Positions 10,821 through 57,150 of a stretch of 59,236 bases of DNA are shown here, in pieces. The notes beneath the pieces were generated by a model that saw only the letters and a list, made by a program, of their open reading frames with translations, was not told the DNA's origin and did not search any database. The DNA is from a bacterium (GTDB lineage: Bacteria > Hinthialibacterota > Hinthialibacteria > Hinthialibacterales > Hinthialibacteraceae). The stretch spans positions 1-59,236 of the forward strand of contig CAXXSM010000047.1 of the NCBI GenBank assembly GCA_963663405.2, read 5' to 3'. The translations under genes were made by a program, and so were the position numbers. The stretch's first letter is position 1; the number at the start of each line of letters is the position of its first letter.

Positions 10821-10936
10821 TCAACTGCGAATCGGACTACCGTTTACTATTTGACAATAAATCGAGTATAATCCCATAATTCTGTAGAATGCCTACTTCT
10901 GGTGAGTATCAGACACCAACTCAACAGGAACAAGGC

Positions 10937-10952
10937 TTTTGCATCCGTGTAC
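10937..10952 (+). repeat. attL core TTTTGCATCCGTGTAC
   Basis: Identical to 57135-57150; about 210 bp upstream of the integrase. Confidence 0.85.
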
Positions 10953-11162
10953 TAATTTTCTCTCCACATCAATGATCACTCTTTCGTATCTCCAATTATC
11001 TCAGTGATATATACTTATCTTATTGTTTTTATTGATTATAGAAATATCTCTATCTGTAATTTACAGGAAAAATTTTTAGTGTTTTCTTGTCTAATCAAGT
11101 ATCTTCTGGTACAATAAAGTGATTCTCTGGAGTAATCATTTCTGTCATCAGTGAGGTATAGG

Positions 11163-12279
11163 ATGAAAACACGCCGAACAGCAGGAACAGGGTGTTTATT
11201 CAAGCGTGGCCGATATTGGTATTTACGGATTAAGAAACCCGGCGGGAAAATAATCATGCGATCTCTGCGTGATCCGATTACCAATGAACGACCTACAACC
11301 AAAACTCACGCGGAAAAAATCGCCGCCGTCCTTGCCGCTGAAATATCAACCGGCGGTAAAATAGGACTCAATGGATATGACAATATTAAACTCACGAATC
11401 TAACCAAACTCGAGTGTAGTTATCGGGAAGCCTTCGAAAGCCAATGGGATATAAATCGTATCCGAAACCACACGAAGCTTATGAGTCGTTTTCAGGAACG
11501 ATTTCCTACAGTGGAAAGTATCACACACGAACGACTCGGTCAATATGTTAAAGAACGACTGTCTTCACTGACGGAAAAAACAAAAAAAACAAGTTTCTCC
11601 ATCGACAATCAACCGGGAACTCTCTGAATTAAGGCGTCTTCTCAACTGGGCTCTTCAAACAGAAAAAATCATAAAGAATCCCATGTGTGGATTCAAGTTC
11701 TTGAAAGAGACAGATCATCGTGAAAGAATACTGAATGAAGATGAAGTGGAGCGATTACTCTTCGCCTTGGATGATGAGCGGTTTGATCGGATTCGGCTGA
11801 TCGTAAAAATTGCGTTATACACAGGGATGCGACGAGGAGAGATTTTTACACTTCAATGGAATTGGACAAGTGGGAAACGTATCAACTATGTGGATTTAGA
11901 AAACAACATTTTTGATCTGCAGGATACGAAAAGTCGAAGGCGGAAAGTTCCTATTCCAACCGTTCTACTTGAAGAACTCAAAAGGAACAAAAAAGAATCT
12001 GGTTATTTATTTACATTGCTGAGAGATCCATCAAAACCGATTACTGTCATTAAGGACTTTCACAAATTATTAAAAGCGGCAAAGATAAAACGATTCAAAT
12101 TTCACGATCTTAGGCATACGGCTGCCTCCCGTATGTTGAGACGAGGGGCCGATATCCGAACCGTTCAACAGCTTTTAGGTCACAGCACGATCACGACAAC
12201 AATGCGATATCTAACCTCTCTTGATGACCAGAAACGGCAAGCGATAGAAAGTATATCCAATTTGTCTAGTAAGGATTGA
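11163..12279 (+). CDS. int: Tyrosine integrase with N-terminal arm-binding domain, split by one extra A in the A8 run at 11582-11589
   Basis: GTGCLFKRGRYWY arm-domain-like start; removing one A joins the frames (KKQVSPSTINRELSELRRLLNW) into 371 aa; catalytic R-K-HxxR-H-Y present (GMRRGE, HDLRH, LLGH, MRYL). Confidence 0.88.
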
Positions 12280-12290
12280 GGATCGGTGCG

Positions 12291-14360
12291 ATGGCAAAAC
12301 AAAAAAAGACAATTCTTAAACTTTGGGGAGTATCAAGTTATGGCGATAATCAGATCGTTCCAGAATATCTACTGGAAAAATCAACAGACGGAAAACTGTG
12401 TTTCAAAACAAATGAGTATTATTCCTTGCTAAGTGAACTAATCGGTAATAAAAAAGAATTTGAGGAATATGAAGATTGGATAGAGAGGAATTTCATCCGA
12501 ACGTTAGAAAATTTAAAAAAGGAAAGACATTACGTTGAATCGCTTTTTGCAAAATACTTGCCCCTTGGAGGATTTTCAAGGTTCCTTTTGGAATGCCTCT
12601 TCGATTTCACACGTGTTAATCAAACGAGCGATTTATGGAACGAAGAGGCCGTATATCCAGTAAGCAAGTTAGTCAGTGATCTGCAAAAAGAAGATCCAAA
12701 TAAAATGTCTGGATGGACAAAAGGAAAACCAAATAATATCCCACAGGATTTTCCAGATTTTCTAAGAGTCTTGATAGAATTCTCATCATTATCACAAAAG
12801 ACTAAACGAGTACTCAAGCACTATAAAACAAAAATAACACTACAACAGCGTTTTTTAGAGGTATATTGGTCGCTAAATGATTGGCTTGCGGAAGTATACA
12901 TAAGAATAGGAAAGTTTGACAAATTAAATGAGATTTTAGAAATCCTGCGCGATGCGAATCAAAAAGCCATGAAATGGCATTGTATATATCCAGACAATCG
13001 GATTGACCGTTGGCAGTCAGTGACTTTAAAGATCATTGAAAAAGCAAAGAAATCCATAATTGAAAATGAAGAAATCATAAATATCAAACAGAGTTGGGAA
13101 ACAGCTTTTGGTGGGTGGATTGGCAATAGTGATTCTCTTCTGGAACTGATGAAAGTAGTAAAAGCTCACGCGACAAGACTCAAAAAGGTGAGCAAGAAAC
13201 CAAAGGTTACATCTCTGTACAGCAACAGACATCTCTTAGTCCTAGGAGAAAGCGGGACCGGGAAAGAATTAGTATGTCATGCGATTGGAACACTTATTGG
13301 TAAAAAAGTATATTCAGTCAATTGTGCCAGTATTCCTGAAAATCTTGCCTATTCGGAATTATTTGGACACACTAAGGGAGCTTTCACTGGCGCCGATAGA
13401 GATAGAAAGGGATTGTTTGAAACCGCAAAAGATAATGTAATATTCCTTGATGAATTTCATCATTTAGATAAAAACATACAAGCCATGTTATTGCGAGTCG
13501 TCGAAGATAATAAATTTAATAAACTTGGATCCGATCCAAATAATTGTGAGCCAACCCAAGTGACTATCATTGCTGCTTCAAACCTATCAGTAAATAAGTT
13601 ACAAAAAAGAGTGTTACCTGATTTGTTATGGCGATTGGGTCTTAGAAATGAAATCTATGTTCCACCACTCCGGGAACGGGAATACGATCGAATGATCCTA
13701 GCAAAGAAATTGATGGACGAATATTCAATTCAAATTGAACCAACCGCGTTGTCGATGTTTTCGTCCATTCCTTTCAGCAAAGGAAACATTCGGGAAATGA
13801 GAAATCGAGTCAGCCGATTAGCGACATATCTCATATATGAAACTGATGAATCAGATACACAACGTATTATCACATTTAAAGATATTCTCAAGATATTTCC
13901 AAATGTACTTGAAGAGAATAAGAAGAGAATCTATGAAATTACAAAAGAAATGGAAGTGTGCGATGAAAAACTGAAAGATTTATCTACCAAGGAGCGAAAA
14001 CGACAAAGCAAAGATGAAAATCGCATTATTCTTGAACGAAAAATGTTCCTAATGTGTGAATTAGAAAAATACAGTCTATTGGACTACTCGGAAAACCAAT
14101 TCCCTTCCGCCATGGATACCTATATTGCATATCTTTTATTGAGTAATTCTAGTATCACCAATTCTCCAACAAGGAAGAGAGGACGCAAGACGGATGAAGA
14201 AATGAAAAAAAGGAGAAAACGTTTACTCAAAAAGCATAATGGCGATTTTCACCAAGCAGTGAAAGACGAAGAATCAATTACCGGAAAGAAGATCACACCA
14301 AAGTCTTTCTACGATTACGCGAAAGAGCATAATCTTACTCCTCTCAAGTATCCGAGTTAA
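12291..14360 (+). CDS. Sigma54-dependent enhancer-binding protein (NtrC-family AAA+) with an uncharacterised ~310-aa N-terminal domain and C-terminal Fis-like HTH
   Basis: GESGTGKE Walker A, SELFGHTKGAFTGA, FLDEF Walker B, GNIREMRN sensor II; no receiver domain recognised. Confidence 0.9.
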   Translation: MAKQKKTILKLWGVSSYGDNQIVPEYLLEKSTDGKLCFKTNEYYSLLSELIGNKKEFEEYEDWIERNFIRTLENLKKERHYVESLFAKYLPLGGFSRFLLECLFDFTRVNQTSDLWNEEAVYPVSKLVSDLQKEDPNKMSGWTKGKPNNIPQDFPDFLRVLIEFSSLSQKTKRVLKHYKTKITLQQRFLEVYWSLNDWLAEVYIRIGKFDKLNEILEILRDANQKAMKWHCIYPDNRIDRWQSVTLKIIEKAKKSIIENEEIINIKQSWETAFGGWIGNSDSLLELMKVVKAHATRLKKVSKKPKVTSLYSNRHLLVLGESGTGKELVCHAIGTLIGKKVYSVNCASIPENLAYSELFGHTKGAFTGADRDRKGLFETAKDNVIFLDEFHHLDKNIQAMLLRVVEDNKFNKLGSDPNNCEPTQVTIIAASNLSVNKLQKRVLPDLLWRLGLRNEIYVPPLREREYDRMILAKKLMDEYSIQIEPTALSMFSSIPFSKGNIREMRNRVSRLATYLIYETDESDTQRIITFKDILKIFPNVLEENKKRIYEITKEMEVCDEKLKDLSTKERKRQSKDENRIILERKMFLMCELEKYSLLDYSENQFPSAMDTYIAYLLLSNSSITNSPTRKRGRKTDEEMKKRRKRLLKKHNGDFHQAVKDEESITGKKITPKSFYDYAKEHNLTPLKYPS

Positions 14361-14452
14361 TTACTCCACTTAATTCTATCCAACAGAAAATACAAGACTT
14401 ACGCTATTACTCCACTTAATAAAATTCCACTCCACCTATTACTCTACTTAAT
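14361..14452 (+). promoter_or_regulatory. Repeated TTACTCCACTTAAT boxes, candidate upstream activator sequences
   Basis: Exact copies at 14361 and 14407, a 1-mismatch copy at 14439, degenerate copies at 14427 and 14335. Confidence 0.6.
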
Positions 14453-14463
14453 TCAGAATATCT

Positions 14464-14492
14464 CATAACCTACTGTAAATAAATAACTTATA
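14464..14492. promoter_or_regulatory. IHF-like binding site between the UAS boxes and the sigma54 promoter
   Basis: AATAAATAACTTA has one mismatch to WATCAANNNNTTR; 23/29 identical to 57090-57118. Confidence 0.5.
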
Positions 14493-14507
14493 GTGATCCT
14501 ATGTGCG

Positions 14508-14524
14508 TTGGCATACAACCTGCT
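14508..14524 (+). promoter_or_regulatory. Sigma54 (-24/-12) promoter
   Basis: TTGGCATACAACCTGCT: GG 14510-11, exactly 10 nt, GC 14522-23; GGAGG RBS at 14553 and ATG at 14566 downstream. Confidence 0.75.
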
Positions 14525-14565
14525 TTATGATCCAAAAAGAAATCAAATCGACGGAGGAGACCATA

Positions 14566-14766
14566 ATGAATCCGCATGAACCCGCTTTTCCATTTTGGTT
14601 AAAGATGAAAGATGTCGCTAGTATCACCCAACTGAGCCTTTCGTCCATTAAGCGATTTGCCGCTGAAGGTCGGATAGATTCTAATTGCGGAAGAAAATTT
14701 GGGAAATCTTGGCGGTTTAAGCGAGACATTATTCTAAATGAGGGATTAATTCTAACTAAACAGTGA
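14566..14766 (+). CDS. Excisionase-like / AlpA-MerR-type HTH DNA-binding protein
   Basis: 66 aa, WLKMKDVASITQLSLSSIKRFAAEGRI...KFGKSWRF; strong RBS. Confidence 0.75.
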   Translation: MNPHEPAFPFWLKMKDVASITQLSLSSIKRFAAEGRIDSNCGRKFGKSWRFKRDIILNEGLILTKQ

Positions 14767-15824
14767 AACCGCACAGGCATGTGAGAATCAAAATATTTAT
14801 CATCATGGTTGAGATTAAATCTGTGAAAAAGGAACGGACGATCTTCCTCCCGGTATCGACTTTCAAAAAACTTTGTGAAAAGTTTACGTCACCAGGAGTA
14901 ATTCTTACGTATATTGCGCTCAAATCCTTTGCAGACCGAAACGGCCATTGCAATCCACTGATTTCTACCCTGATGGAAATGACGAAAACTAAAGAGCGTA
15001 CGATCCAGGATCACATCAAAGAGCTAAAAAAATACGGATTTATTCGAGTGAAATTAAACAAAGGACATTCCGCGAGTGATTACTACCTATTAGTAACGGA
15101 GAGAGGCGTGGATTCACGCGCCTCTACAAATCAAGAGAGACACGCGGGAAATCGCGCCTCTGAAGCCGAGAGAGGCGCAGATTCCCGCGAGAGAGGCGCG
15201 GTGGACCGTGGGGTTAACAGTTATGAACAGTTAAAAAGCTTTAACAATACTGACGGAACGGAAAAAAAGAAAAAAAACAAGTCATTGGAGAAGGCCACAA
15301 AGTCAGAGGATTTCGAAGCGAATTTCGAAGAAGTTTACAGGGCATATCCACAGAAAGGACGGAAACAGCGAGCGCGTGATCAATACAAGGCGGCACTCAA
15401 ATTGATATCTCATGCGGAACTCCTCAAAGCCGTCAAAGATTACAACGAGTCTCCATACGTCCAAAGCCGGATTAACGATCCGGAAAATAAAAAATACATT
15501 CCTCTCTTCGTCAATTGGTTGAAAGACTGCTCATGGGAGGCTGAGGAACGGGATCGATGGAATAACGCGGCGCCGGGTTGGAAACCTCCAGAAAAAAAAT
15601 ATACCGCAGATGAACAGCGGGAGATTATCCGGGGGAAAATACGCGCTCAGATATTCGAGGAATTAGCCGAATGCATGAAAATCGTAACGGAGCCGTCACG
15701 CCTTCTGGAGCGGATGGGCAACCGTCCTGACGTATACGATAGACTGAGATTAATCGACGGCACAACGGAGTTATCAGCATTCGTGGAATTCGCCGCCGGA
15801 TTGGGGGTGAAAATCGATGGCTGA
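14763..15824 (+). CDS. Phage-type replication initiator (N-terminal wHTH)
   Basis: wHTH (LTYIALKSFADRNGHCNP...RTIQDHIKELKKYGFI), repetitive linker, FEEVYRAYPQK...NWL C-terminal domain; overlaps dnaB start; may start at ATG 14805. Confidence 0.75.
   Translation: MKPHRHVRIKIFIIMVEIKSVKKERTIFLPVSTFKKLCEKFTSPGVILTYIALKSFADRNGHCNPLISTLMEMTKTKERTIQDHIKELKKYGFIRVKLNKGHSASDYYLLVTERGVDSRASTNQERHAGNRASEAERGADSRERGAVDRGVNSYEQLKSFNNTDGTEKKKKNKSLEKATKSEDFEANFEEVYRAYPQKGRKQRARDQYKAALKLISHAELLKAVKDYNESPYVQSRINDPENKKYIPLFVNWLKDCSWEAEERDRWNNAAPGWKPPEKKYTADEQREIIRGKIRAQIFEELAECMKIVTEPSRLLERMGNRPDVYDRLRLIDGTTELSAFVEFAAGLGVKIDG
15099..15280. repeat. Iteron-like repeats and AT-rich tract inside the initiator gene (putative origin)
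   Basis: Four GAGAGAGGCGyG-like units, partly paired with inverted CGCGCCTCT, then AACAGTTA x2 and an A-rich tract. Confidence 0.6.
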
Positions 15825-17157
15825 GAAAATCCCCCCACACAACTCCCAAGCAGAAATTAAACTCCTCGGCTCGTGTCTGCGCTGTAACGCCGATGGCTTC
15901 GCGGAAACGGAAGCCATTCTCCGGGCGCGGAATCTCGATCTCAAACCAGAAGATTTCTACGAGCCGAAACACGGGACGATATACCTCGCACTCTGCGGCA
16001 TGGCGGAGCGGCGCGAGGAAATTACATTAACCGCTCTCGGCGATTGCCTGGAGCGATCCGGGAATCTCCAACGGGTTGGCGGCGCGTACTATCTCATCGA
16101 GTTGGCGCAGTCGGTCGCAACCTCGGCCAATGTCGAGTACTGGTCCAAGATCGTCCTCGAATGCGCACAACGCCGGAATCTTATCCGGAGTTGTCAGGAG
16201 ACGATCACGCAGACGTACGCGGCGGAGTCAACCGAGGAATTAATCTCCGCACACCAATCCCGTATCCATGCGATTCTCGGACGCGCTGACGGCAAGCGCG
16301 GACTCAAGCCGATAGGCGACACACTACCGGAGGCCATCGAGAGTATCCAAGCGCGGAGCGAGAATCTGTACGGGGGCCGGGCGGCCTGCGACGGGATATC
16401 TACCGGCTTGATCGATCTCGATCGCAAGATTGGCGGCCTGGGCCGGGGCCGTCAAATTGTCCTCGCGGCGCGGCCATCTGAGGGAAAGACGAGTCTCGGC
16501 GCACAGATCGCCGCTCATGCGGCGCGGTCTGGAAACCATGTCTGTGTCTTCTCATTGGAAATGTCCAACCAAGAGTTGACAGAACGAATTCTCTCGAACG
16601 TGGCCGAGGTAAATATCAGGCAGGCGCTTGATATTGCGAAATCTACGCGGCTGCTCAACGCCGAGAAACTCGCCAAGGACTGGGAGTTGTACATTGACGA
16701 CTCTCCATTGCAGATCGAAAAGATTGAGTCACGGGCGCAGCGTCAGGCGCTTATCAAGCAAATTGATTTGATCGTGGTTGATTATCTGCAACTCTCTGAG
16801 ACGAGTCACACACACAAGCGCTATGAGGCCGTCACGTTGATATCCCGACGTTTGAAACTCCTCGCCAAGGAGTTGAATTGTCCGATTCTGACGCTCTCAC
16901 AATTGAATCGGGAGAGCGAAAAAAATAACGAGCCGCCAAAACTGTCCAACCTGCGAGACAGCGGCGCCATCGAGCAGGACGCGGATCAAGTGCTATTTAT
17001 CCACGCGCCGGACGGCAATGACAAGCGGGAGTCCGGGACGCGAGAAATTATCGTGGCCAAGAACAGGCACGGGCCGATAGGCCAAATTGATTTATATTTC
17101 CGCAAGGATTTAACGCGGTTTGAACCGCTCAGTGATCGAGAGGAGGAAATAATCTAA
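15817..17157 (+). CDS. dnaB: Replicative DNA helicase, phage/element-type DnaB
   Basis: PPHNSQAE N-terminus, AARPSEGKT, FSLEM, VVDYLQL, LSQLNR, LRDSGAIEQDAD, KNRHGP. Confidence 0.95.
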   Translation: MAEKIPPHNSQAEIKLLGSCLRCNADGFAETEAILRARNLDLKPEDFYEPKHGTIYLALCGMAERREEITLTALGDCLERSGNLQRVGGAYYLIELAQSVATSANVEYWSKIVLECAQRRNLIRSCQETITQTYAAESTEELISAHQSRIHAILGRADGKRGLKPIGDTLPEAIESIQARSENLYGGRAACDGISTGLIDLDRKIGGLGRGRQIVLAARPSEGKTSLGAQIAAHAARSGNHVCVFSLEMSNQELTERILSNVAEVNIRQALDIAKSTRLLNAEKLAKDWELYIDDSPLQIEKIESRAQRQALIKQIDLIVVDYLQLSETSHTHKRYEAVTLISRRLKLLAKELNCPILTLSQLNRESEKNNEPPKLSNLRDSGAIEQDADQVLFIHAPDGNDKRESGTREIIVAKNRHGPIGQIDLYFRKDLTRFEPLSDREEEII

Positions 17158-17366
17158 TGGAGACGCTGAAAGTCTTTTGCAAAAAATGTAAACGATTTCT
17201 TTCCACCGCCCGGCGCGGGTCACAAGTCCATTGTCCTTCATGCGGTGAATACTCAACCGCCGGGATCGGGCAACGGGCCGAAATACCGGACTTGGTTGAG
17301 ATGGCCAAGATGGGCAGACAACGAAAGAGGAAGCGGAATCGAATGTCTGTTTGCATATTTGCATGA
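17157..17366 (+). CDS. Small Zn-ribbon protein
   Basis: CKKC...CPSC; translationally coupled to dnaB. Confidence 0.6.
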   Translation: METLKVFCKKCKRFLSTARRGSQVHCPSCGEYSTAGIGQRAEIPDLVEMAKMGRQRKRKRNRMSVCIFA

Positions 17367-17393
17367 AAATAACCAATGAAAGGACGAACAACC

Positions 17394-17738
17394 ATGAAAA
17401 ATATTTCTATGAAAACCGATGGAAACAGTGTTCAGATAACGATTAACTTGGAGAATGAATGTATGTCTAATGGTTCATCTGATCGAGAATTAATCCCTTC
17501 CGTTTCTAGATTCGATCCCCGTATTCCGGCTTTCGATTATCTCGTAGGTAATAAATGCGAACATCCAGATTCGATTGTTAGGAATACATGGTTAAAGGTG
17601 ATTGGTTGGCCGTACAGCGATCAAGCCGCGTTCGCTTTGCAGGTTGGAATATTAATCAAGAATGGAATCCTTGAGCCGGAAGCATGTAAATATACATATG
17701 AGGGGATGACAATCAGTACACCATCTTTGAAAAGATGA
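17394..17738 (+). CDS. Hypothetical protein
   Basis: GAAAGGA RBS; N-terminus similar to the 18111 ORF. Confidence 0.6.
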   Translation: MKNISMKTDGNSVQITINLENECMSNGSSDRELIPSVSRFDPRIPAFDYLVGNKCEHPDSIVRNTWLKVIGWPYSDQAAFALQVGILIKNGILEPEACKYTYEGMTISTPSLKR

Positions 17739-17744
17739 ACGATC

Positions 17745-17954
17745 ATGAAAAACAATGGAAAAAAGAAACTGATCTCGAAACCCGCTTTCCCAAAACTGAT
17801 CGAGGTTCGATGCTCAAGATGCGAGCACGTTTTGTGTTCCGCGCCGGTTGGAGCGCGTGTGTGTTGTGAAGACTGCCATCGCTGGCATATCGTGAAAGAC
17901 TGCGATGGGAAACTCCTTGTTTTTGAGTGGAAGCCTGACGCGCCTAAAGAATAA
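17745..17954 (+). CDS. Small Zn-ribbon protein
   Basis: CSRC...CEDC; paralogous to the 17157 ORF. Confidence 0.6.
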   Translation: MKNNGKKKLISKPAFPKLIEVRCSRCEHVLCSAPVGARVCCEDCHRWHIVKDCDGKLLVFEWKPDAPKE

Positions 17955-18110
17955 CCAGAAATCGCCGGGAAGGCGCTAAATCTTCGCCCTGTTGGATGTT
18001 TGGTATTTTTCCGATGAATGAGCCGCGCAAAACAGGAAACGCCGTGCACGCGCAACGAGCAGACATTTTAGTGAGTGTAATTTGAATCGGCATTGAAAGG
18101 ATGAAAGATC

Positions 18111-18299
18111 ATGAAGAATGTAGGAATGATAGTTGATGGAGACGTTCTACGAATCGAGATCAATCTTACGAAAGAATGTGGACTTTCAAAGTCCGGGAAA
18201 ACCACCATTGTAGCAACCACCGCCGGAAATGTTCCTTTGCCAAACAGAGAAAACATTAAGATTGGGCTGAATTGTTTTAAACCGTTGGACCGGGAGTGA
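18111..18299 (+). CDS. Small conserved hypothetical protein
   Basis: MKNV...INLTKECGLSKSGKTTIVATTAGN...IGLN resembles a ~60-aa uncharacterised family recalled from memory; RBS present. Confidence 0.65.
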   Translation: MKNVGMIVDGDVLRIEINLTKECGLSKSGKTTIVATTAGNVPLPNRENIKIGLNCFKPLDRE

Positions 18300-18356
18300 T
18301 TTTTATATCAAAGTACTTTATATTAAAAAGCATATTCCTTGACAACCTCCCCCAGG

Positions 18357-18533
18357 ATGTCGACATCATCCCAATACCATATCGATACGAACCCCATATC
18401 AACCCCATACCATATCGATATCAACACCATATCAACCCCATATCGATATCAACCCCATATCGATATCAACACCATACCATATCGACACTATGTGGACATC
18501 ATCCCCTCAAGGGGCCCCCTATAGGGGCCCCCC
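18357..18533. repeat. CCATATC(GATATCAAC) repeat array plus GC-rich near-palindrome
   Basis: Seven CCATATC copies (18377-18483) between ATGT(C/G)GACATCATCCC direct repeats; GGGGCCCCCTATAGGGGCCCC at 18511. Confidence 0.8.
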
Positions 18534-19048
18534 AGTCACAAACAGAAAAAAAACCAAAAATCCCCCGTTGACTTCCATTTCCCTCAAAAACTATCTCCCC
18601 CCAAGGGTGTACGAAATAAATATGGGTAAAAGATCATCCAGTAGTTCGTGAAGCCCAATAATCATCTCATTCACTACTGAGTAAACAACATCCCAGGGTA
18701 ATATAAATCGCCACATCTCCGAGGACCACCTGACGTTTCGTTTGAGCCAATCCAGTCCAAACCACTTCTGCAAATAGGTCTTTCCCAAACTCTTCAGCCG
18801 TCTCGATCAAACCAGAATAAGTTGTCAAATCCAAATTCCGTTATTGTATATATTTATTATAACAAATCATAATACTACCATTATATCGTTTTTTAATACA
18901 TATAATTATATATTCAAAATTCAATGCTTGATTTAGAAAATTAGTTTTTGAATAATTGAAATTGTCATACGATAGACCGATATACATACACTAAAAAATC
19001 TAAAAAAATCCGCAGAGGTGTAATTAACACATAAACCATCGATCCAAA

Positions 19049-19106
19049 GGGGGGGCGGGGGGGTCGATTCCTAGAGAACAACGGATATATAATCCGTTGT
19101 TCTCTA
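19049..19106. repeat. G7-C-G7 tract and perfect 15-bp inverted repeat
   Basis: TAGAGAACAACGGAT-ATATA-ATCCGTTGTTCTCTA at 19072-19106. Confidence 0.8.
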
Positions 19107-19482
19107 TCTCATAACATATTGATATATAAAGACTTACGAATCTTTGAAATAGGCATAGAATAGGGGGATTAATAGATTGATTGTTCACATATATACATTC
19201 ATCGATGATAGGTATTAATTGTGCATATGCTCATAACATTACCCAAATAGACTCCAAATAGCCCACAAATAGGGTGTTAATAAGCCCTTATTTCCCCGTT
19301 GTTTGCATCATATTTCCATTTTTCCTATAGTATTGACCGCGTGCGTTCAGGATGATACTAAATGGTTTAATAACTATCAAATAGTTGTTAAATAGGCAAT
19401 ATATATGTTGACTTTTGTAATTTGTTCATGATAGGATAGGGTTGTAGTTGAGGGAAATATAGAGATTGAAGGAGTAGGAACG

Positions 19483-20121
19483 ATGAGACTAACTGAGGAG
19501 TACAGACCAAGAACTTGGTCCGAAGTTTTGGCCCAAGACAAGGCAATTGAACGCATCAAACGAATTGGGAAACGCGGCTACGGCGGTAGAGCGTTTTGGA
19601 TATCCGGTCAATCGGGGACTGGAAAGACAACTCTAGCCTATCTCATCGCAGAGGAAATAGCGGACGGCTGGAGTATTCACGAACTGGACGCGGGAGAGAT
19701 GACCGTTAGCCGGTTGAAGTCAATCGAATCGGATATGAACCATCTCGCCTTGGGTAAAGGCGGGAAAGCGTATCTCATTAATGAGGCGCATGGTCTCCGG
19801 AAGGAAGCAATACGGCAATTGCTTGTCATGCTTGAACGTCTTCCGTCTCATGTCTGTGTTGTTTTTACTACAACGTGTGAAGGTGAAGAGAAACTTTTTG
19901 AAGACTATGACGATTCATCACCATTAATAAGCCGTTGCGCGCATATAAAACTAGCAAGGCGGGATCTTACAAAACCATTCGCCGAACGCGCGCAATTCAT
20001 AGCACAGGAAAACGGCTTAGATGGAAAACCTTTAGCATCCTATATCAAACTAGCGCAGAAGCATCGAAACAACATGAGAGCGGTCCTGCAAGCAATTGAA
20101 GCCGGTGAGATGATGGATTAA
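19483..20121 (+). CDS. Clamp-loader/RarA-clade AAA+ ATPase
   Basis: [14 protein letters not shown]-terminus, [14 protein letters not shown] (degenerate Walker B), SRC arginine finger. Confidence 0.8.
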
Positions 20122-20173
20122 TTCAGTCTTGTTTTAAGTCTGTTTAAAACCTATTTCAAAGGAGTGAAGGACA

Positions 20174-20413
20174 ATGAAGGAAAAAAGAGATTACACGGTT
20201 ATCGCAGAAGGAAACTCTCAGGGAGATTACGTTACTTGCCTTTATTCTGCTGAATACGATTGGGTTATGGAATGGGCGCGATTTGCTTCACGATATTATG
20301 GGAATGTTCCCGTTACTGTCCTTGAAACTATTTCCCGTGAACCCTATCGATCAAAACAAGTTGGTTCAATTGAACCGAGTAACGAGCCTCTTTTTGAATT
20401 TCCAGTAATCTAA
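20174..20413 (+). CDS. Hypothetical protein
   Basis: RBS and operon context. Confidence 0.6.
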   Translation: MKEKRDYTVIAEGNSQGDYVTCLYSAEYDWVMEWARFASRYYGNVPVTVLETISREPYRSKQVGSIEPSNEPLFEFPVI

Positions 20414-20426
20414 AGGAGAAAAAATC

Positions 20427-20837
20427 ATGTACAGATTAATCATAACAAGAAGTATTGTTGCGAGTGATGGGGAAGGGCGAGAGGTTATGACTGAAAAGAA
20501 AGACCTCGATTTCGATTTAGATACTTGTATTACTTGTGGGAGAGTCTTGGTAAATGATCAATTCGTAAGAAGGGTAAAGGTTGTTGATCCTAAAAATGAG
20601 ATCATTGTTCGATGGGATTCATGGTTGGCTAAATTGATTCAACGATGCAATGGGCGTGAATTGGAAATCTCGAACACGAAAATAGAATCAATTTACCATC
20701 TGCACAAACGAGCTTTTAAATCGAGAGACGAGATTTTAAGAGAAGGAAAAGAATTGAATCGCGTTGACTGGGTGATGGTATATCCAAACGGCACAGAAAA
20801 CCATGTCTGCGCGATGAATAATGGTATTCCAGTATAA
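20427..20837 (+). CDS. Hypothetical protein
   Basis: AAGGAG RBS and operon context. Confidence 0.65.
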   Translation: MYRLIITRSIVASDGEGREVMTEKKDLDFDLDTCITCGRVLVNDQFVRRVKVVDPKNEIIVRWDSWLAKLIQRCNGRELEISNTKIESIYHLHKRAFKSRDEILREGKELNRVDWVMVYPNGTENHVCAMNNGIPV

Positions 20838-20858
20838 AACAATTGTAATACAAAAATA

Positions 20859-20901
20859 TCCCCAGGGAGACACTCCCGGCAAGGATCGCGCTCCCTGGGG
20901 A
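20859..20901. promoter_or_regulatory. 11-bp stem hairpin upstream of ardC
   Basis: TCCCCAGGGAG ... CTCCCTGGGGA. Confidence 0.45.
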
Positions 20902-20929
20902 ACCACCAAAGAAAGGCGGTAACCATATT

Positions 20930-22332: not shown

Positions 22333-22339
22333 AAAAACA

Positions 22340-22365
22340 ATGGGGGCCGGTTCGCCGGTCCCCAT
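22340..22365 (-). terminator. GC-rich hairpin, terminator-like on the minus strand
   Basis: ATGGGGGCCGG-TTCG-CCGGTCCCCAT; T-run follows on the minus strand. Confidence 0.45.
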
Positions 22366-22380
22366 ATAAGGAAATCTAAA

Positions 22381-22536
22381 ATGAACCGAACCCAGATTAA
22401 AGAAATCATAGAAGACCGGCAGTGGTTCGTCCTTGAAATGTACGCGACGGGCCGGATAAACACACTGGAAGCAGACGGGCGCTTGAAGGAACTTAGTTGG
22501 ATCACCCGGCTCTTGGGAAAGGAAAAGGAAGCATGA
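22381..22536 (+). CDS. 51-aa hypothetical protein (below ORF-track cutoff)
   Basis: AAGGA RBS; MNRTQIKEIIEDRQWF...; stop overlaps the recombinase ATG (ATGA). Confidence 0.55.
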   Translation: MNRTQIKEIIEDRQWFVLEMYATGRINTLEADGRLKELSWITRLLGKEKEA

Positions 22537-33432: not shown

Positions 33433-33479
33433 TACGTTGAGTTCATGTGTGAATTCCGGCGCGGAAAGGATGCTTGTCA

Positions 33480-42378: not shown

Positions 42379-42413
42379 TTTATATCTTTTTCCAATATAT
42401 ACAAGATTTTAAA

Positions 42414-48107: not shown

Positions 48108-48513
48108 AATTGACCTTCGTAATCTATGATGAGTTTAGTATGCAGGAATGGTCAAAAATAACATAATCAGATTGCTGGAAAATAAACCTAACTATCAGAA
48201 TATTAAACAACGGTTAAATAATGCTGTATTTTTTTGCGATCCAGCACTTGCTATTATGCAATTCAAATTTTCATTTAATTATTCATGAGAGAAATTCCAT
48301 TGTCAAGAAAAAAATATTTCTTTTTGGGGCGTGGGATTCTTGACCGATATGCTGTTGACATCTGTATATGATATGTTACTTTGGATATAAAATTATCACC
48401 ATGAGCAAACCGAATCAAGACTCGATTGCTATCGATTCTATAGAATTCAACGCTGATAGGTCGGATTAAAGAGTTCTAGTGACCTTGGCGAAAATAATAT
48501 CGGGAGGAAGACG

Positions 48514-50910
48514 ATGAATAAGAACTATTTATTATTGAACGCTGTTGTGTTGACTCTCTTATGCGTAGCGCAGACCGAAGCGCGGAATTATTACATCGAC
48601 GCGGTGAATGGTGACAATATCAATGGGGACGGATCTTTTGAGAATCCGTACAAACATATCATTCTGGTGTTTAAACAAGGCGATATGCAACCGGGAGATG
48701 AGATCCATCTCGCTCCTGGGCTGTATACGGATGAGCCGGATCGTTTTGGATTTCGTGAGAGTTTCCCGATCGACCTTTCGGATGGGATTTCACTACACGG
48801 CGCCAGCGCAGCAGACGTTATTCTTGAGGCTAGCCGTACTTCAAATGCCATTATACAGGTTGTCAATAACTCGCAACCGGTAACGATCAGTGGTGTTAAG
48901 ATATACCACACATATCAAAACGGTACCGGAATCAAAATCACTGATTGCATGACAGAGATTGTGACAGTCTTTGATTGCGAGATTACAGAAAATAATTATG
49001 GTCTTTACATAATGAAAAGTCAAGCGATTATCGATCGCTGCATCATCTCAAAGAATGCGGTCACAGATTTAAATAATTATATTGGAGGCGCAGGTTTATA
49101 CTGCGATACATCTATCCTAGATATATCGAACAGTGAGATCAGGGATAATACTGTGAAGGGACGAGCGCAAGGTGGCGGAGTTTATTGCTATAACCGTTCA
49201 TCGATGACATTATATAATACAGTAATCTCCGGGAACACCGCTTCAGGTAGTTATGGAGGAGGTAATGGAGGAGGTATTCATATATTAAACAGTTCCGAAG
49301 CAACGGTGGATAGATGCACTATTAAAGAAAATCATTCATCAGAAAACGGTGGAGGTATTAACTGCTCAGGTAACCTACATATCACTAATTCCATGATTGC
49401 TAACAACAAAGCGGGTGGATCTGGGGGAGGAATGTATATAAAAAAAACTGCCACGATTCTACACTGCACATTCCTAGAGAATACTTCTGCAAGTGGTACT
49501 GTTTCCGTAGAGAACAGCGACGTCCGAATAGGAAATTGCATTTTCGTTAGGGCGATGAAATCCGAAGATGCTCCTGGCTACGCAATCTCCGAACTTAATG
49601 AGAGTAGTGATCCACAAGTCTTTTCCAATCTATTTTGGGACAATGCGGAGAATTTTTATCTTGATGAGGGTAGTTATGGTATACCTTTAGTGCTGACACT
49701 CAACTTTATGTTGGAAGAAGCGTGGGATAACATCAGCGAAGATCCTGGTTTCATCAACGCAGATAAGGGAAATTTCGATCTTCAATCGAATTCCCCTTGT
49801 ATAGACGCAGGCGCCGGTGTTGTTACTAATGTCGTGATGCCTGTCACAGATTTTCTAGGAAGGACTCGTCCCCAAGGAAACGGCTATGATATTGGCGCCT
49901 ATGAGTTTCAAGGAGAGAAGCCCATACCAACGATTCCTCCTACACCCATACCGACTCCAACACCCTCACCCACAGTTTTCCCATTTGAGATCGTAATCAC
50001 TCCTAATGAACTGGACTTTGGTGAAGTTACGATCGGGGAATTTCGTGAACTAGCATTCCTTTTGGAAAATCAAGGAGATGGCGGTTGGTCGGTTGAACCG
50101 TGGACCTTGGCGCCTTTTAGTATTGTGGGGGGCCTAGGCTCAGAGATCTCCCCCGGTGGTTCCGCGATGGTGATTGTACGGTACGAACCACAAGTTGCAG
50201 GAACTGACGAAGATATCGTCAATTTCAACTTCGGCCGCCTACCACTCGGAATACCACCTCATCATGGAGATTATTTCGAATCGAGGACCGTTCGTGGGAC
50301 CGCTGTCTTTGCCCCCATTCCTACGGAAATTCCCACTCCGACAGCCACTCCCACACCAACTCCTGGTCCATTTGTTATCGAATTCGAACAGCCAACAATA
50401 GAAGAGAATGGATTGATCTACGTAGCGGGTGGATTTAGCGAATTTCCCAGCGGCGAAGTTACATTTGTTGAATTATCAGATTGGATTCCTTCATCGAGTG
50501 ATGGGCAAGGGATGATGATGGAAGTAGATCCTGGTGAAGTCGCATTGATTTTAACAGATTTGCCCGTTCATATCGGAAGTCGAGTGGCGCTGCTTCGCGC
50601 CGTAGCGCGCGCGGATCAACCAAATGTGAGTATTGCGCTAGCCGCATTGAAAGGAGACCGTTTGTCAGCAGATAGTATGGACGGCTCAATCGCCACACAT
50701 ATCCCAGCCAGTGCTGCCAGTTTTATCGAGCAGGAACGAGCGCTGGTTCTGCTATACGAACCCGATTCAGGCGAAGCCATCACACCCGTTCTGCAGATCG
50801 CAGCCACAGGAGACACCGGCCCAGCACGCGTTTATTTTGACCGACTAGAAATTCACTTTATCGATACAGAAACAGATATACCTAACGAACTACTGTTTGC
50901 ATCCCCATAA
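48514..50910 (+). CDS. Exported right-handed beta-helix (DUF1565/pectin-lyase-like) protein with Ig-like and C-terminal domains
   Basis: Signal peptide; GDGSFENPYK; GGGxxC repeats; SPCIDAG...DIGAYE; LDFGEV Ig-like domain. Confidence 0.8.
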   Translation: MNKNYLLLNAVVLTLLCVAQTEARNYYIDAVNGDNINGDGSFENPYKHIILVFKQGDMQPGDEIHLAPGLYTDEPDRFGFRESFPIDLSDGISLHGASAADVILEASRTSNAIIQVVNNSQPVTISGVKIYHTYQNGTGIKITDCMTEIVTVFDCEITENNYGLYIMKSQAIIDRCIISKNAVTDLNNYIGGAGLYCDTSILDISNSEIRDNTVKGRAQGGGVYCYNRSSMTLYNTVISGNTASGSYGGGNGGGIHILNSSEATVDRCTIKENHSSENGGGINCSGNLHITNSMIANNKAGGSGGGMYIKKTATILHCTFLENTSASGTVSVENSDVRIGNCIFVRAMKSEDAPGYAISELNESSDPQVFSNLFWDNAENFYLDEGSYGIPLVLTLNFMLEEAWDNISEDPGFINADKGNFDLQSNSPCIDAGAGVVTNVVMPVTDFLGRTRPQGNGYDIGAYEFQGEKPIPTIPPTPIPTPTPSPTVFPFEIVITPNELDFGEVTIGEFRELAFLLENQGDGGWSVEPWTLAPFSIVGGLGSEISPGGSAMVIVRYEPQVAGTDEDIVNFNFGRLPLGIPPHHGDYFESRTVRGTAVFAPIPTEIPTPTATPTPTPGPFVIEFEQPTIEENGLIYVAGGFSEFPSGEVTFVELSDWIPSSSDGQGMMMEVDPGEVALILTDLPVHIGSRVALLRAVARADQPNVSIALAALKGDRLSADSMDGSIATHIPASAASFIEQERALVLLYEPDSGEAITPVLQIAATGDTGPARVYFDRLEIHFIDTETDIPNELLFASP

Positions 50911-51012
50911 CAGATCACAAGGTGATTGATCGTACAATTCAGCGGTTTTTTTCACGGATTTGATCAAACAAAACATTCATTCCGTATGTACGTCGTACCC
51001 TGGAGGAGAACG

Positions 51013-54000
51013 ATGTCAAACATTAAATCAGGTAATAGGATCAAATTTTCCTGTTTCAGAAATATTATTAAAAGTATAATAGTTCTTTGGTGTTTGACTC
51101 TATCCTTGTCTACAAGCGCTCAGAGTATCACCGATCTCCCACTTAACACACCAATCTCGGATACGATTTCTCCACTGAATAAGGAAAAAATATACAGAAT
51201 TCTGATTGGCGGGGGGGAACACCTGTTTTTGTTTGTAGAAAAGTCAAATGCATGGGCTTCACGGCTCGATATTATGTATAGTTCTCCACCTAAAGATACG
51301 GATTACGACGATACAGATGGTGGGATAAATGATCTGACTGATCAGTCTGTAGAGATTCAATCCACTCAAATGGGTGTCTACTTTGTTCGATTGAAAGCGG
51401 ATGGGGATACGCAGGGTGGAGAATATAAGGTCATCGCTCAAACGCTGAAAACTTGGCCGTCGTTGCAGATCGGACAACAATTTGATGAAAACTTATCTTA
51501 TAGTGGCGCAGAGCATTTATTTTGGATCAAACCAAAATCCAATGGATGTCTTATTACCCTACGTGGAACCAATCAAAACGAACTTCCAATTCTTTACATC
51601 AAGAAAGATTTCTTACCTGACGTGAGTGATTTTGATATACGCAGGGAAGGATCATTGGAAGTCACAGCCATCCTGACTCCATTGAATGAATCAGAATATT
51701 ATATCAAGATCGCGAATTCGTCTGAAAATGGGATTGATTATACGTTAAGTGTCACTGATATTAAGGAAACGATCCAATCAACGCCAACCGGAAAACCGAC
51801 GGCGATACCGACTCGTACGAATAGACCTACAGAAATACCAATTCCTACCTCTCCCCCAACACTCCCTCCTTCTATTACTCCTACGATCGCAATCACCCCG
51901 ACATCCAACCTGTGTGGTGTTCTTCTCAGTTCTCCGGGGAAAATCGGTGTGTCTCCTCAAGTCGCGACGGATCCATTTGGAAACGCGCACATCATATGGA
52001 AGGAGGAAGACGGGGAATTAATGTATACGCGAATCGATTCGGATCTATCAAACGCACCATCTATCCACATGATCTTCAAAGCAGATAATTATAGTTCTCC
52101 CCGTATTGCAACCGACTCAGATGGGAATGCGCATATTATTCTATGGTTGCAAATCTCTGAAAAATTGATTTATTTCAAAGTTTCTAACGGCAAAGATGTT
52201 GAATCACATACATTAAATCTGTTTGGAGGGGCCGATTGCCGTTATGGATGGCCAAGTATATCTATAGATCCAACAACAAATCTACCTGTTATTGCAGTAG
52301 AATTTCATATCTATTGGCCACCAGTGGAAGATTTATATGTACCTCCCCCCCTAGTCAATCTTTTTTATCCACATTTTGGGAATTATGGTATTCCATATGA
52401 TTGTTTTTGGGATGGGATTTTTGTTGTAAAATTGAATAAACGCGGTGAATCTATTGATGATTCACGTTGGATTCCATTTATTTTTATTCCTCATGGCTTC
52501 CCGTTGAAATATTCAAATGTTGATGTTAGATCGCCGGATATAACCGTTGATTCAGACGGAATATTTCATTGTGTTTGGATGCATAAAGAATCTGAATGGG
52601 GAGGTTTTAGTATTGCGTATAGAAATCAACATAATGATAATTGGTTTGAAATTTCTAACCATAGAAATGTTCTTTATAACCATGGGGGGCCAAAAATATG
52701 CGCGAATGACTATGATTACATTAATGTTGTTTGGTCCACAGAAAATGGCGATACGGTTTGGCAAAATATGTTATCAAATGGATTAACATTTCAAGACGAC
52801 ACGGTAATAAATCCTGCAGGAGCGATTACGTGGTTTCCAAGTATATCCGCATCGCAAAAGGATGTTGCCGCATGGACGGATAAAAATACAAAACAGATTT
52901 TTTATAAAGTGTTATCCGGCGATGGACTTGTTAAAGAAGTCTCTTGTTCTGGTAGCGAAGCCATGAAGCTGGATATTTCCCTCTTCGAGGATAATTATAT
53001 CGACTGCGTTTGGCAGGAGAAACGGGAGGATATCTATCAGGTATATCACAAACGTGTGGCTTTTATTGAGCCTTCCACCAAACCTCCTGTCGCTCTATTT
53101 ACTCACAATCCTGATCATCCGTTTGTAAATAACCCAATTACGTTTATTGCCACTGAATCACATGGTCATGATGCTGAAATTGTTAGCTTTAAATGGGATT
53201 TTGGAGACGGCAATTCGGCTAATGGGGAGATTGTTAATCATGTATATGAAAATCCAGGATACTACAATGTGAAACTGACCGTCAAAGACGAAAACGGACT
53301 TGAAGGCTTTGCGGTGCTGACGTTTGAAGTCTTAACCAATCAAATTCTTGTAGGTAATATTCTCATCCGCGGGAGTGCAATTCACGAAATCCAAGACAAT
53401 CCAGGTGTTTTCCGTGTTGAAGGAAAGATCGAATTTGGCGCGAAGAGCGGTTTGATGATGCTGTACACCTGTACTAGTGGTTCAATTACAGTCAATACGA
53501 AAACAAAAAAGATTTCAAACATCAACCTCTCTGGAAATCATATCATGAAAGCGGGAAGCCATGTAATCAGATTATCAGTGAATGATCTCAATATTCATCC
53601 AATCGATCCAGATAATCCATTGACAGGTTCGATTAACTTTGGCGTGAAAACAAAGGTGTTTTTACCTAATAGTCTCTCATTTGATATCGTAGAATTAGGC
53701 TCAAAATTAGACCTAAATTCCGGAGTATTTGATGTAAAGGCATGCTGGTTTGATGGAATTTTTAATGGATTACAAAAAGCTAAATTTGTAATGGCTCTTG
53801 GTCCAGAGCAATTTACTGGTGAGATTGAAATTACTCCTTTTGGTAGAGATTTATTTTCTCCTTTTTCATTTCCGGATAAAAATTCCTTTATTGAATTTGG
53901 AAAAATGCCCAAAATACGCATGAATATTTCTAATTGTGGATTCGAAATTGAAAATCAAGGTCTTGATATTGTTAAATTTTTTGATGGTGGTATTGATGTA

Positions 54001-56930
54001 GGTTTATCTCTCAGTTTTTATGGTGTTTCCACAACTGGATTGTTGAAAGTGAATTGGTGTGGAGATTTTATATCTATTTCTGGCGATGATCTTAGTATAA
54101 ATATAAGCCCAAGTAAAAAACCGATCGGAATTTTTCCTTGGAATATCCTCAAAACGAAAAATGTTACAAATAACAACAACAATAAAAAAACAAAATTTTC
54201 GCCAGTAACTGGAGTAAAGATAAATGTAGATCACGCTGAATTTAACATACCTAAATCCACAGATATTTTAGATATTTTTCAATTATCAGGAAAATTAGAG
54301 AATTTATCATTAAGTATAGAAGTTTTTTGGTTTTTTTACGTTCAGATATTTTCTATGGATACAACCTTGGAAGATCTGAAATTTACATTATCCCAGGACT
54401 ATCGTGCTCGAATTGGTAATTTAATAGAATCGGCAAAGGGAATTTCAGTTGAATCCTATTTAGATTTAAAAACAGGAGAATTATTTCTTCATTTGCGAGA
54501 AGACGTCGATTTTAATTCTGATTGGTTTTCTCCAGTAAATACTATATTGGTAGGAGCTGAGTTTGCGATATATATCGATGTCGATGCGAGAATACCTTTT
54601 AATAAGATGTTTGGTTTAGAAGCAAAAACGGATCTAACGCTCTACGGTCATAAAATTCCTGACAAGAATATAATTTTAACATTTGACACCGACGGTATAA
54701 TATATAGCTGTGAACCATTTGTAGATTTAGACAAATATCCTTTTCAATACAACAAACCTACTGATATTAACAGCGAGTTCCTTGACTGGAATGACAACAA
54801 AAAATGGGATTCGGGTATTGAGTTCATTTTATTTTCCTTAATGAGAGTCAAATGCGAGGGAATTTTTAAACCATGGATATTTCGTGGAAAAATGCAAACT
54901 CCTATATGCTGGAAAGGTTATTGTTGGAATACAGAAATATACTTCACCATTGACAAAGATGGTAATGTCTCATGGGGCGCAAGAGCTGAACCTTATATTC
55001 CGCAAACTGGATTACGTCTTGCACAGGAAGAATCAAAATTTGTAACTGTATTCGCTGATCTATATGGACAGTCGACAATAATTGTTAGTGACCAAGATGA
55101 TCCACCAGTTATCAATAATGGTCCAAAGGTATCGCAGTCAAGTTCTACTACTACCATTATCACATGGAATACAAACGAACCATGTGATAGTGTTGTTCAT
55201 TATGGAACAACTACAAAATGCAACCTTTCTGTCGCTGAACCAGCGTATATAATGAATCATAGCGTTGTTCTTGAAAATCTTGATCCACTTACAGAATATT
55301 TTTTTTATGTAGAATCAAACGATCTAACAAATACGATTCCCGCTGTATCCTCATTGCAGACATTCACAACTTCTAATTCTATAGATAATATTCCACCAAC
55401 TATATCGAATGAACCGCTGATTACGCTTCTTTCAGAAACCTCTGTGCAGATCGAGTGGGAGACTTCAGAGCCAACATCTGCTATAATCGAATATGGAACC
55501 GCTGTGGAATATGTTTTAGAAAGAACCCGAAGTACTTTCGCAGATAATCATATAATAAACATTGCAGATTTAGTACCAGATACGATATACTATTACCGCA
55601 TTTTGATAACAGACGCCGCAGGGAATGGTCCGATAAGTTTTGAAGAACTATCGTTTAAAACAGCTTCAGCACCTGATACCACTCCACCTTTAATCACAAT
55701 CAACTCGAAGATTGAGATCATTTCAAACACCAGCACACGTATTACTTGGGAAACTAACGAACCTGCGAATAGTATAGTGAATTATGGAATTGATTCACAT
55801 TACGGTAACCGAATAACAATTGCGGAGTATACTCTAGAACATTCAATCACTCTACAGAACCTCCTTCCAGGTTTTATCTACCATTACAAAGTTGGTTCAA
55901 CAGATGCATCGGGTAATGGTCCAGTTAATAGCGATAACGATTTTTTTGAGATGCCCTCAGTTCCAGAACCTACATACAGAGAAGGATTTTCACAAGGAAT
56001 ACTTGAAAGTGACGCTGTAATTATAGAAAATGTTAAAAACTACGAGCAAGCAAATGTCCAAGAAACAGTGATACCTTCGCTGCCTGGTTCAGATGGATAC
56101 GGTCTCGTATTCGAAGCCGGGCCAAACGAAGGAACTTTATGCATTCTGAGAGCTTCTGTGTCATACGATCAAGGACCTGTTGTTATCTCTGCCTGGGTAC
56201 GAACGGACAGTAACGATTGTTCGATTGGTTTGGTAGGCCTCAATTCTCCTATCGATGGACAATTGGGCTATACACTCGTCACAGGTCCAGATGTCCCCGT
56301 AGGGGAATGGAAAAAACTGTTTCTTTTGTATGATCCTCCTAACGATATTGTTCAACCAGCTATTCAGGTTGTTGCGCTAGAAACCGCGATAGAGGGAGTC
56401 AAAGTATACATTGATAACTTGGAGATACGTTTATTATCGACTGACAATTTTGAAGAGAATAATTTGGATATCGATGGCTCCTTCGATCAAGATACGGCTG
56501 GGATGATTACGAATGTGAATGGGGATAGTGGGGAGGTTCTGCTAGTTCCTGATGATGAAGGTGGTAAACAAATTCTTCTCTCAATTGATGAATCAGACAT
56601 CGCAGCTAATATAGGAGTATTCGCAACCCAATTGCAGGATGGTTTCCCCCAATTCATAAAAGCGTCTGTTGAATCACAATTAGTTAATGGACCAGAAGGT
56701 ACGACTGCGCTTGTAATGACAAACGGTTATACGGATGTAGGTATGTTTATACACAATTCTCACTTGCCTCTCTCAAGTGAACTACCACAGACATTATCAA
56801 TTGGAGGTTTATTCGAAACGGAAAATCCAGATATGCAATTTTCTGTGTCGTACAGAATGGTGGTCCATCATTACAGTCTGAAATCATAATCGATAATCTC
56901 GAACTAAAAAGACTTATTGGAGAGATGTAA
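51013..56930 (+). CDS. ~1970-aa exported protein with PPC-like, propeller-like, PKD and three FN3-like domains; 1-nt frameshift near 56836
   Basis: GGAGG RBS; WDFGDG PKD motif; 3x ITWxTxEP...YG...H; alternate frame ends IFCVVQNGGP...IDNLELKRLIGEM*. Confidence 0.8.
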
Positions 56931-57134
56931 AGTGAATATATAAGAAGGTTTCAATACATCGTTATGGTTTATTATAAAGTCACATCAAGCAGAATTTGAT
57001 AGCCTAAAGATTTTATATTGAGGTCATATCGATCTATAAAGACTCATCTCTATAGTAATCATTTTAGCAATCTATTTAATTTTGCAGTTCATAACTTACT
57101 TATTTTAAATAACTTATATTTTTAAGTATACGTA

Positions 57135-57150
57135 TTTTGCATCCGTGTAC
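57135..57150 (+). repeat. attR core TTTTGCATCCGTGTAC
   Basis: Identical to 10937-10952; GTATACGTAT-TTTGC-ATCCGTGTAC forms an 8/10 inverted repeat. Confidence 0.85.

Follow-up and report, generated by a model that had tools for sequence, protein, structure and literature searches.

Attachment (att) sites outside tRNA genes are already known, as is the basic mechanism by which elements integrate and accrete at att sites. The literature describes accretion (PMC13651849), modular excision (PMC4057263), shuffling of modules bounded by sites with matched spacers (PMC13141974), and a general scheme of recombination by integrases (PMC8371274). Here, we analyze a DNA stretch of 59,236 nucleotides (the window), which is the entire contig C47 (CAXXSM010000047.1) of a bacterium of the Hinthialibacterota. 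The assembly (GCA_963663405.2, labelled G000 below, with contigs numbered C1, C4, etc.) comprises 8.44 Mb in 170 contigs, and is 82% complete. The window contains a 46-kb unit bounded by a 16-bp direct repeat. We argue that each 16-mer represents a copy of a 25-bp dyad site, and that the two are likely to be the left and right attachment sites (attL and attR) of an integrative element, which would have been inserted by lambda-type tyrosine recombination at the start of another, larger multicopy element that encodes Cdc6.

The closest described systems resemble this locus in some respects and depart from it in others. Tandem accretion of integrative and conjugative elements (ICE), integrative and mobilizable elements (IME), and cis-mobilizable elements (CIME) of the ICESt1/ICESt3 type (PMC5704250) shares with our interpretation the stacked elements that decay to integrase-free units. 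However, the cases described there involve a single locus, located where a target gene such as a tRNA gene ends, whereas the present sites are intergenic, occupy about 13 places on 10 contigs, and are used from both orientations, and no relaxase was found in the 46 kb. The PAISt island of Streptomyces turgidiscabies (PMC4057263) has a short, non-tRNA palindromic site, a tyrosine integrase, and internal copies that allow modular excision, and the island becomes fixed when the integrase erodes; it differs in that the palindrome is 8 bp long, is located at the 3' end of bacA, and is present in three copies in one island with one integrase. Tyrosine integrases that target anticodon loops (PMC8371274; bioRxiv 10.1101/2020.11.02.365908) are comparable in the dyad around a 7-bp loop, in sister enzymes located at tRNA genes, and in the stem of tRNA-Arg(CCT); in contrast to the sites in PMC8371274, the site studied here is outside of any tRNA or Rfam RNA, and its spacer matches no compared anticodon loop. 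Finally, the pdif modules of Acinetobacter (PMC13141974) are similar in having many related sites with identical spacers that bound shuffled accessory modules, but these are small plasmid modules served by host XerC/D, as opposed to the element-encoded integrases, co-oriented sites, and 6-46-kb modules found here. Searches of open-access text yielded no account of an intergenic site that is dispersed in a genome and shared, in opposite orientations, by a pair of integrase lineages with tRNA-targeting sisters.

The repeat is part of a symmetric core next to an integrase

The repeat, TTTTGCATCCGTGTAC, is located at 10937-10952 and 57135-57150, with the copies 46,198 bp apart. An earlier reading of this DNA, made without database searches (the sequence-only reading), had placed it at exactly these positions, and no other match is present in the window with up to three mismatches. 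The imperfect inverted pairs around the repeat were read directly from the sequence as 8/10 (left) and 7/10 (right), in agreement with the counts given earlier. The symmetry is best fitted by a 7-bp spacer, TTTTGCA, between 9-bp arms. Three read runs with assembled contigs (X1-X3) were compared against the window. The features at the two ends are as follows:

10928-10952, forward strand: left core (putative attL), a 9-bp arm, the spacer TTTTGCA at 10937-10943, and a 9-bp arm; a contig of run X3 departs from the reference at 10952
57126-57150, forward strand: right core (putative attR), with the spacer at 57135-57141
11163-12279, forward strand: int1, a lambda-type tyrosine integrase (PF00589) with an N-terminal extension and the catalytic R, K, HxxR, H and Y motifs; frameshift in an A-run at 11582-11589

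About 220 bp separate the left core from the start of int1. The claim that these are core sites of a tyrosine recombinase is supported by a 9-7-9 dyad at both ends and an integrase with the R-K-HxxR-H-Y motifs beside one of them. The earlier statement that no tRNA lies at the site is also correct: there is no tRNA or tmRNA gene in the window, no tRNA is closer than 24 kb to any of the 15 core sites described below, and no Rfam match was obtained at E ≤ 0.1 across 14 site loci. It should be noted that a lone 16-bp direct repeat is within chance, because 56 of 100 Markov-simulated windows of 59 kb hold at least one repeat of at least 16 bp.

A family of related sites in two genera

Genome-wide, we found six exact copies of the 16-mer, compared to 0.002 expected, and 10 copies within one mismatch. 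The sequence-only reading had named a common genomic repeat as the outcome that would speak against it; this is true in the letter, but the copies prove to be junctions rather than a generic repeat. In a matrix scan of G000, 13 sites scored above 29, with a maximum of 19 for the reversed genome, although 12 of these 13 sites are the training set of the matrix. Two further sites with a variant right half scored 22 and 15, the latter value being within the control range. The approximately 13 related sites are spread over 10 contigs and are intergenic: ORFs (open reading frames) of at least 150 aa contain none of the 15 sites, compared to 68% of random positions. The spacer TTTTGCA is invariant in 14/15 sites. 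Using the 25-bp pattern for a search of 36 genomes, we detected nine matches in G000, five in G010 (which belongs to another genus), one in G005, and none in the other 33 genomes, with no control matches; two looser candidate sites are present in G012. All co-located sites (C110 and G010) are directly oriented, and no alternating inverted sites were found among them.

A variant core with the right half AACGTRTAC is found in G000 (C65:922 and C7:30728), G010 (C8:728166 and C8:1267157), and G005 (C214:10872); a right arm of about 60 bp is conserved in the four copies compared (G000 and G010), and no integrase is linked to these cores. In two genera, genes for HU/IHF and serine resolvase are located near cores (C161:22493-23585 of G000; C8:1241592-1242209 and C8:1273462-1274193 of G010), which raises the possibility that the integrases are assisted by an element-borne IHF. 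A pattern scan of wider genome contigs yielded at least 111 matches in unrelated taxa, and one of 80 loci had a distant integrase (26% identity); these matches were treated as chance. The exact 16-mer has 20 matches in IMG/VR, none of them with a related integrase nearby, and no relative of the integrase was found in the JGI metagenomes.

Flanking arms change partners at the core

The two window cores are flanked by four arms:

10813-10927, forward strand: left arm LA, starting like an end of the IS481 family, followed by about 70 bp common to C110:79156 and C15:10917
10953-11162, forward strand: right arm RA, leading to int1; 91% identical to C15, with AGTAATC at 11131 as a possible arm-type site; the link to LB is weak
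57054-57125, forward strand: left arm LB, a putative element end in which AGTAATC-like 7-mers occupy -81 and -69; common to C99, C142 and C53
57151-59236, forward strand: right arm RB and the first two genes of the multicopy Cdc6/MoxR-vWA/ArdC/HerA element, host of the target site

Across the site family, left arms are of the types LA (three sites), LB (four), LC (three), or unique, and right arms are of the types RA (two), RB (four, one of them degenerate), RC (two), and RD (four to five). Left and right arms pair freely, in at least eight combinations. This is reflected in the identity on the two sides of the core, for pairs selected after BLAST. The numbers of matches per 50 bp (left and right of the core, respectively) are 41 and 16 for C47:10938 compared to C110:79156; 46 and 23 for C47:57136 compared to C99; 23 and 44 for C47:57136 compared to C110:47091; 41 and 25 for C1 compared to C110:47091; and 14 and 50 for C1 compared to C161. 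The shared flank blocks begin at the core and are 123 to 2,090 bp long. In the reads, record 17 of X3 matches 10575-10952 with one difference, while its remaining 699 letters, past the last base of the core, are unlike the reference; homology between the filled and alternative alleles breaks at the core. Because paralogous DNA swaps partners at the core and the X3 contig departs at its last base, the core is a recombination site.

The filled junction of LA and RA is spanned in run X2 with no differences and in run X1 with 34 differences in 522. Run X2 may be the source sample of the assembly, and the X1 data suggest that this junction is older than about 5% divergence, or was formed twice. The LA-core pattern has no matches in the JGI metagenomes. 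AGTAATC-like 7-mers at -81 and -69 are present in 4/4 LB-type sites and could represent arm-type sites for the integrase. A motif that LC and RD appeared to share on visual inspection was rejected, as it was not ranked by the gapped test. On C142, one of the LB-type sites has, at a distance of about 3 kb, a gene for a 2265-aa RHS protein (C142:101120-107914) with SpvB/TcdB-middle and FG-GAP domain hits.

The probable target site lies in another mobile element

The sequence-only reading assumed a plain attB target. This has to be revised: the left flank of the 46-kb unit is the arm led by an IS481-type end and the right flank is the start of the giant Cdc6-bearing element, and both are multicopy mobile DNA, so that the site sits in another element. 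On the left, one further feature precedes LA:

10758-10815, forward strand: truncated end (58 bp) of an IS21-type element, 81-86% identical to ends at C55, C141, C7 and C64; cut by LA

The C7 copy of the IS21-type element encodes a Mu-type transposase and IstB. The length of LA varies from 71 to 125 bp, and in the window LA cuts off the IS21 end. The IS481-type end family, which has an rve/HTH transposase, has 45 hits in G000 (the seed model included the window copy), of which only three (C47, C110:79290, and C15) are just upstream of a core. The possibility that the Cdc6 element truly terminates at LA was considered and rejected, because the start of LA belongs to that 45-hit family. Some IS481-type ends (e.g., C110:138489-139409 and C164:29448-30647) are opposed, about 1 kb apart and with no intact transposase, like miniature inverted-repeat transposable elements (MITE), and some are arranged head to tail.

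On the right, everything from 57115 onward to the end of the contig matches C110, C141, C4, and C38 at 88-94% identity; in those contigs, RB runs on as a backbone of 23-36 kb encoding Cdc6, MoxR-vWA, ArdC, and HerA. A HerA/TraG-like ATPase is encoded by the Cdc6 element, which also gave a weak Replic_Relax hit. At a distance of 50 kb from the core site on C141, an ORF for a 420-aa tyrosine integrase (C141:49336-50595) extends in the antisense direction into tRNA-Gly(TCC), and may mark the far end of an island that contains the Cdc6 element.

We designate the int1-type lineage and its elements Y, and a second integrase lineage, found on C110, on C1, and in G010, W; the W integrases are about 50% identical to int1 in the catalytic half and are located at the same core, on its opposite side. 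On C110, LA and RB bracket other inserts, of 5.8 and 26 kb, with three co-oriented sites, and the 26-kb unit has at its end an intact integrase (368 aa), which occupies the opposite side of the core. G010 mirrors this layout: three co-oriented sites are separated by 6.3 and 23 kb, an integrase with 75% identity is about 200 bp from the last core, and genes of the Cdc6 element are found 47-66 kb further on. Deleting the inserts from C47 or C110 would leave LA-core-RB, the same attB that had been predicted from the window. The W-type unit at C110:51268-72477 encodes flavin oxidoreductases, TspO, a B12-binding regulator, a cation ATPase, and a peroxidase; in our reading, the flavin oxidoreductases are carotenoid-desaturase-like, and the cargo is related to light or oxidative stress.

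Proposed mechanism and alternative explanations

It is well established that lambda-family integrases exchange strands across a 7-bp spacer. In the mechanism we consider most likely, int1 would recombine a circle with the junction LB-core-RA with the empty target LA-core-RB, with strand exchange across TTTTGCA, and the W lineage would act on this core from its other side. Since each insertion would regenerate two cores, Y- and W-type elements could stack in tandem, as in the junctions of LB with RD and the trio of sites on C110, and the stacked elements would then decay into integrase-free units. The RA-LB pairing is the weakest part of this mechanism.

Several observations weigh against this mechanism. 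Neither the LA-RB (empty site) nor the LB-RA (circle) junction was seen in the assembly, the JGI metagenomes, or the reads; of the junctions proposed as a check by the sequence-only reading, neither attP nor attB was observed, although the X3 contig diverges exactly at the core. The single contig with this X3 break has a depth of 2.5, and a 99.5% match to int2, an integrase gene inside the unit, is likewise present in X3. The AGTAATC 7-mer is also found reversed in RB. No orthologue of the left-flank melibiase above 38% was found in 40 genomes, and there was no close or same-genus relative to compare. The similarity between RA and LB, an ungapped match of 16/18, is reached by 2/300 shuffles, but in the gapped test by 580/1000, which is not significant. 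At two sites (C110:47091 and C141:163), the arm preceding RB is LC, so that RB could be an element end rather than a passive target. Furthermore, blocks of 39493-57150 are 77-95% identical to C99, and no Y (int-dnaB) backbone is present with this cargo on the 62.6-kb contig C99. The C99 copy stops at the same core, so that the surface-protein block travels with LB. The earlier claim of one 46-kb element with the defence and surface-protein cargo inside is partly supported, by the core repeats, the integrase adjacency, and the link of the cargo to the right end via C99, but not by the occurrence of that cargo without the int-dnaB backbone.

The last three observations (the failed gapped test, LC followed by RB, and the C99 cargo), as well as C15, which has the same backbone and different cargo, would be expected if the att sites are real but the pair in the window is unmatched. 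RB would then be the left end of a Cdc6 element with an LC-side integrase, and the window would be a tandem or mosaic of independent events, the RA-int1 backbone and the cargo with LB. We consider this unlikely: the 26-kb unit on C110 that ends in the LC-side integrase begins at an RD site and lacks the Cdc6-element genes, LC precedes a different arm (RC) on C1, and there is no third core between the two window sites.

Even less probable, in our opinion, is a pdif-like system, in which the cores are borders of portable modules of 6-46 kb acted on in trans by any resident recombinase (int1, W, int2, or host Xer), with no directional reaction between attP and attB. The invariant spacer and the free pairing of arms are compatible with such a system. 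So are the small modules lacking an integrase (5.8 and 6.3 kb) that are enclosed by sites in two genera, and the many sites that have no integrase in their vicinity. Conversely, the uniformly direct orientation of co-located sites is not expected under this model, and arms conserved over 60-200 bp with positioned motifs, together with the N-terminal extension retained by int1 and W, fit directional recombination that depends on the arms. The 7-bp spacer differs from the 6-bp spacer of dif, and the core is unlike an XerD motif.

That the repeat is due to chance or is an end of an IS or MITE family, the window being just an IS-rich island, is highly improbable, since the lone repeat seen in simulated windows and the IS481-type end 125 bp left of the first copy are outweighed by the genome-wide excess of sites, the arm swaps at the spacer, the integrase adjacency in two genera, the X3 breakpoint, and the small number of IS481-type ends adjoining a core.

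Contents of the 46-kb unit

The unit contains the following features in addition to int1:

12276-17157, forward strand: backbone encoding a sigma54-type AAA regulator, a small HTH protein (putatively excisionase-like), an HTH Rep-like protein, and a DnaB helicase, in the same order as in C15
18374-18480, forward strand: short tandem repeats, possibly iteron-like
19072-19106, no strand: perfect palindrome with 14-bp arms, the spacer TATATAA, and an ACGGA/TCCGT stem as in the core; candidate resolution site for int2
19483-23384, forward strand: module common to C6 (92%; 4.9 kb), encoding a clamp-loader-like AAA protein, ArdC, and int2
26239-36314, forward strand: defence cargo, a type IIG restriction-modification gene and a PLD-SNF2 helicase
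37386-56889, no single strand assigned: large surface or secreted proteins with cohesin, LRR/dockerin/FGE, FG-GAP, beta-helix, and PKD/Fn3 domains

The A-run of int1 has one extra base, and the C15 copy has a different one. Contigs that are one base shorter at 11582 are present in runs X2 and X1, and none among the matches listed carries the longer run through, so that both a real allele and an assembly slip are possible. A programmed -1 frameshift was rejected, as the A-run is one base too long compared to C15 and the read contigs, and a -1 slip does not fit. The type IIG restriction-modification gene is interrupted by an ISAzo13 copy (27456-30590) with a nested IS1-like element (27812-29016). 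Because int1 is frameshifted and the restriction-modification gene is split, the window copy is likely to be grounded in cis, and an intact integrase would have to be supplied in trans.

The int2 gene (22533-23384) encodes a paralogue of int1, 47% identical, without the N-terminal ~85 aa. The left arm, spacer, and stem of the palindrome at 19072-19106 are retained in C6. Two variable blocks are found in this region, 17122-18776 and 19099-19210; both are replaced in X3 contigs and the second one in X2, and the second block breaks inside the right half of the palindrome. The sigma54-type AAA regulator (694 aa, 12276-14360) overlaps the stop codon of int1. It has no match at E ≤ 1e-60 in 35 relatives, and close homologues are found only in G000.

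Scans of 42 window ORFs with Pfam and 27 with NCBIfam, in which several ORFs had no family, detected no relaxase, coupling protein, or type IV secretion system, so the unit does not qualify as an ICE. Likewise, capsid, terminase, and other packaging genes were absent from the Pfam and NCBIfam results, and the unit does not qualify as a phage or a satellite.

Integrase lineages and the tRNA connection

In a search of 40 relatives (E ≤ 1e-30), all eight of the other integrase homologues, which come from five genomes and share 38-49% identity, are located just downstream of tRNA genes: Thr-CGT (three cases), Arg-CCT (two), Pro, Met, and Ala. A duplicated tRNA half was not found beside these tRNA-linked relatives, apart from one hit with one mismatch (G025:C489). 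Phylogenetic trees of the catalytic half (34 rows) and of the full-length proteins (19 rows; G005, C15, C1, and G011b were left out) place Y within an unresolved group of tRNA-linked enzymes, and W apart. A single Y+W clade is not rejected by the approximately unbiased (AU) test (p = 0.189), although the best tree separates them.

The TCCGT stem of the core is identical to the anticodon stem of tRNA-Arg(CCT). In post hoc comparisons to the anticodon arm of this tRNA, the right core matches at 15/25 positions, a value reached by 337/5000 random dyads, and the palindrome at 19072-19106 matches at 18/25 positions, reached by 8/5000, with Thr-CGT as the next-best arm. Given the 337 random dyads that reach the value of the right core, the resemblance of the core to tRNA-Arg(CCT) is only suggestive. 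The core spacer equals none of the 43 anticodon loops compared, the best value among the top-ranked arms being 5/7. An origin from tRNA-Cys was rejected, since the core matches four tRNA-Cys genes at 11-13/25 positions, which is within the null. ARAGORN predicts 42 tRNAs in G000, including tRNA-SeC and no tRNA-Cys; the missing tRNA-Cys is probably due to the incompleteness of the assembly.

Implications

A tentative scenario, which goes further than the mechanism proposed above, is that tRNA-targeting integrases moved to a self-propagating mimic of an anticodon arm, in two lineages and in opposite orientations. The int2-type paralogue, which would have lost its arm-binding domain, would use a perfect version of the mimic, with an orthogonal spacer, for resolution. 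The mimic at the end of the Cdc6 element might serve as a portable landing pad, at which modules of 6-46 kb with defence, surface, and metabolic genes would be stacked and shuffled genome-wide, in an integron- or pdif-like manner.

The locus provides a natural case for the study of target change in integrases, with sister enzymes at five different tRNA genes and two lineages at a non-tRNA site that has an anticodon-like stem. Programs for island detection that presume a unique chromosomal attB would mis-draw these elements. The results suggest a route by which an uncultured lineage reshuffles modules of very large surface proteins and of defence genes.

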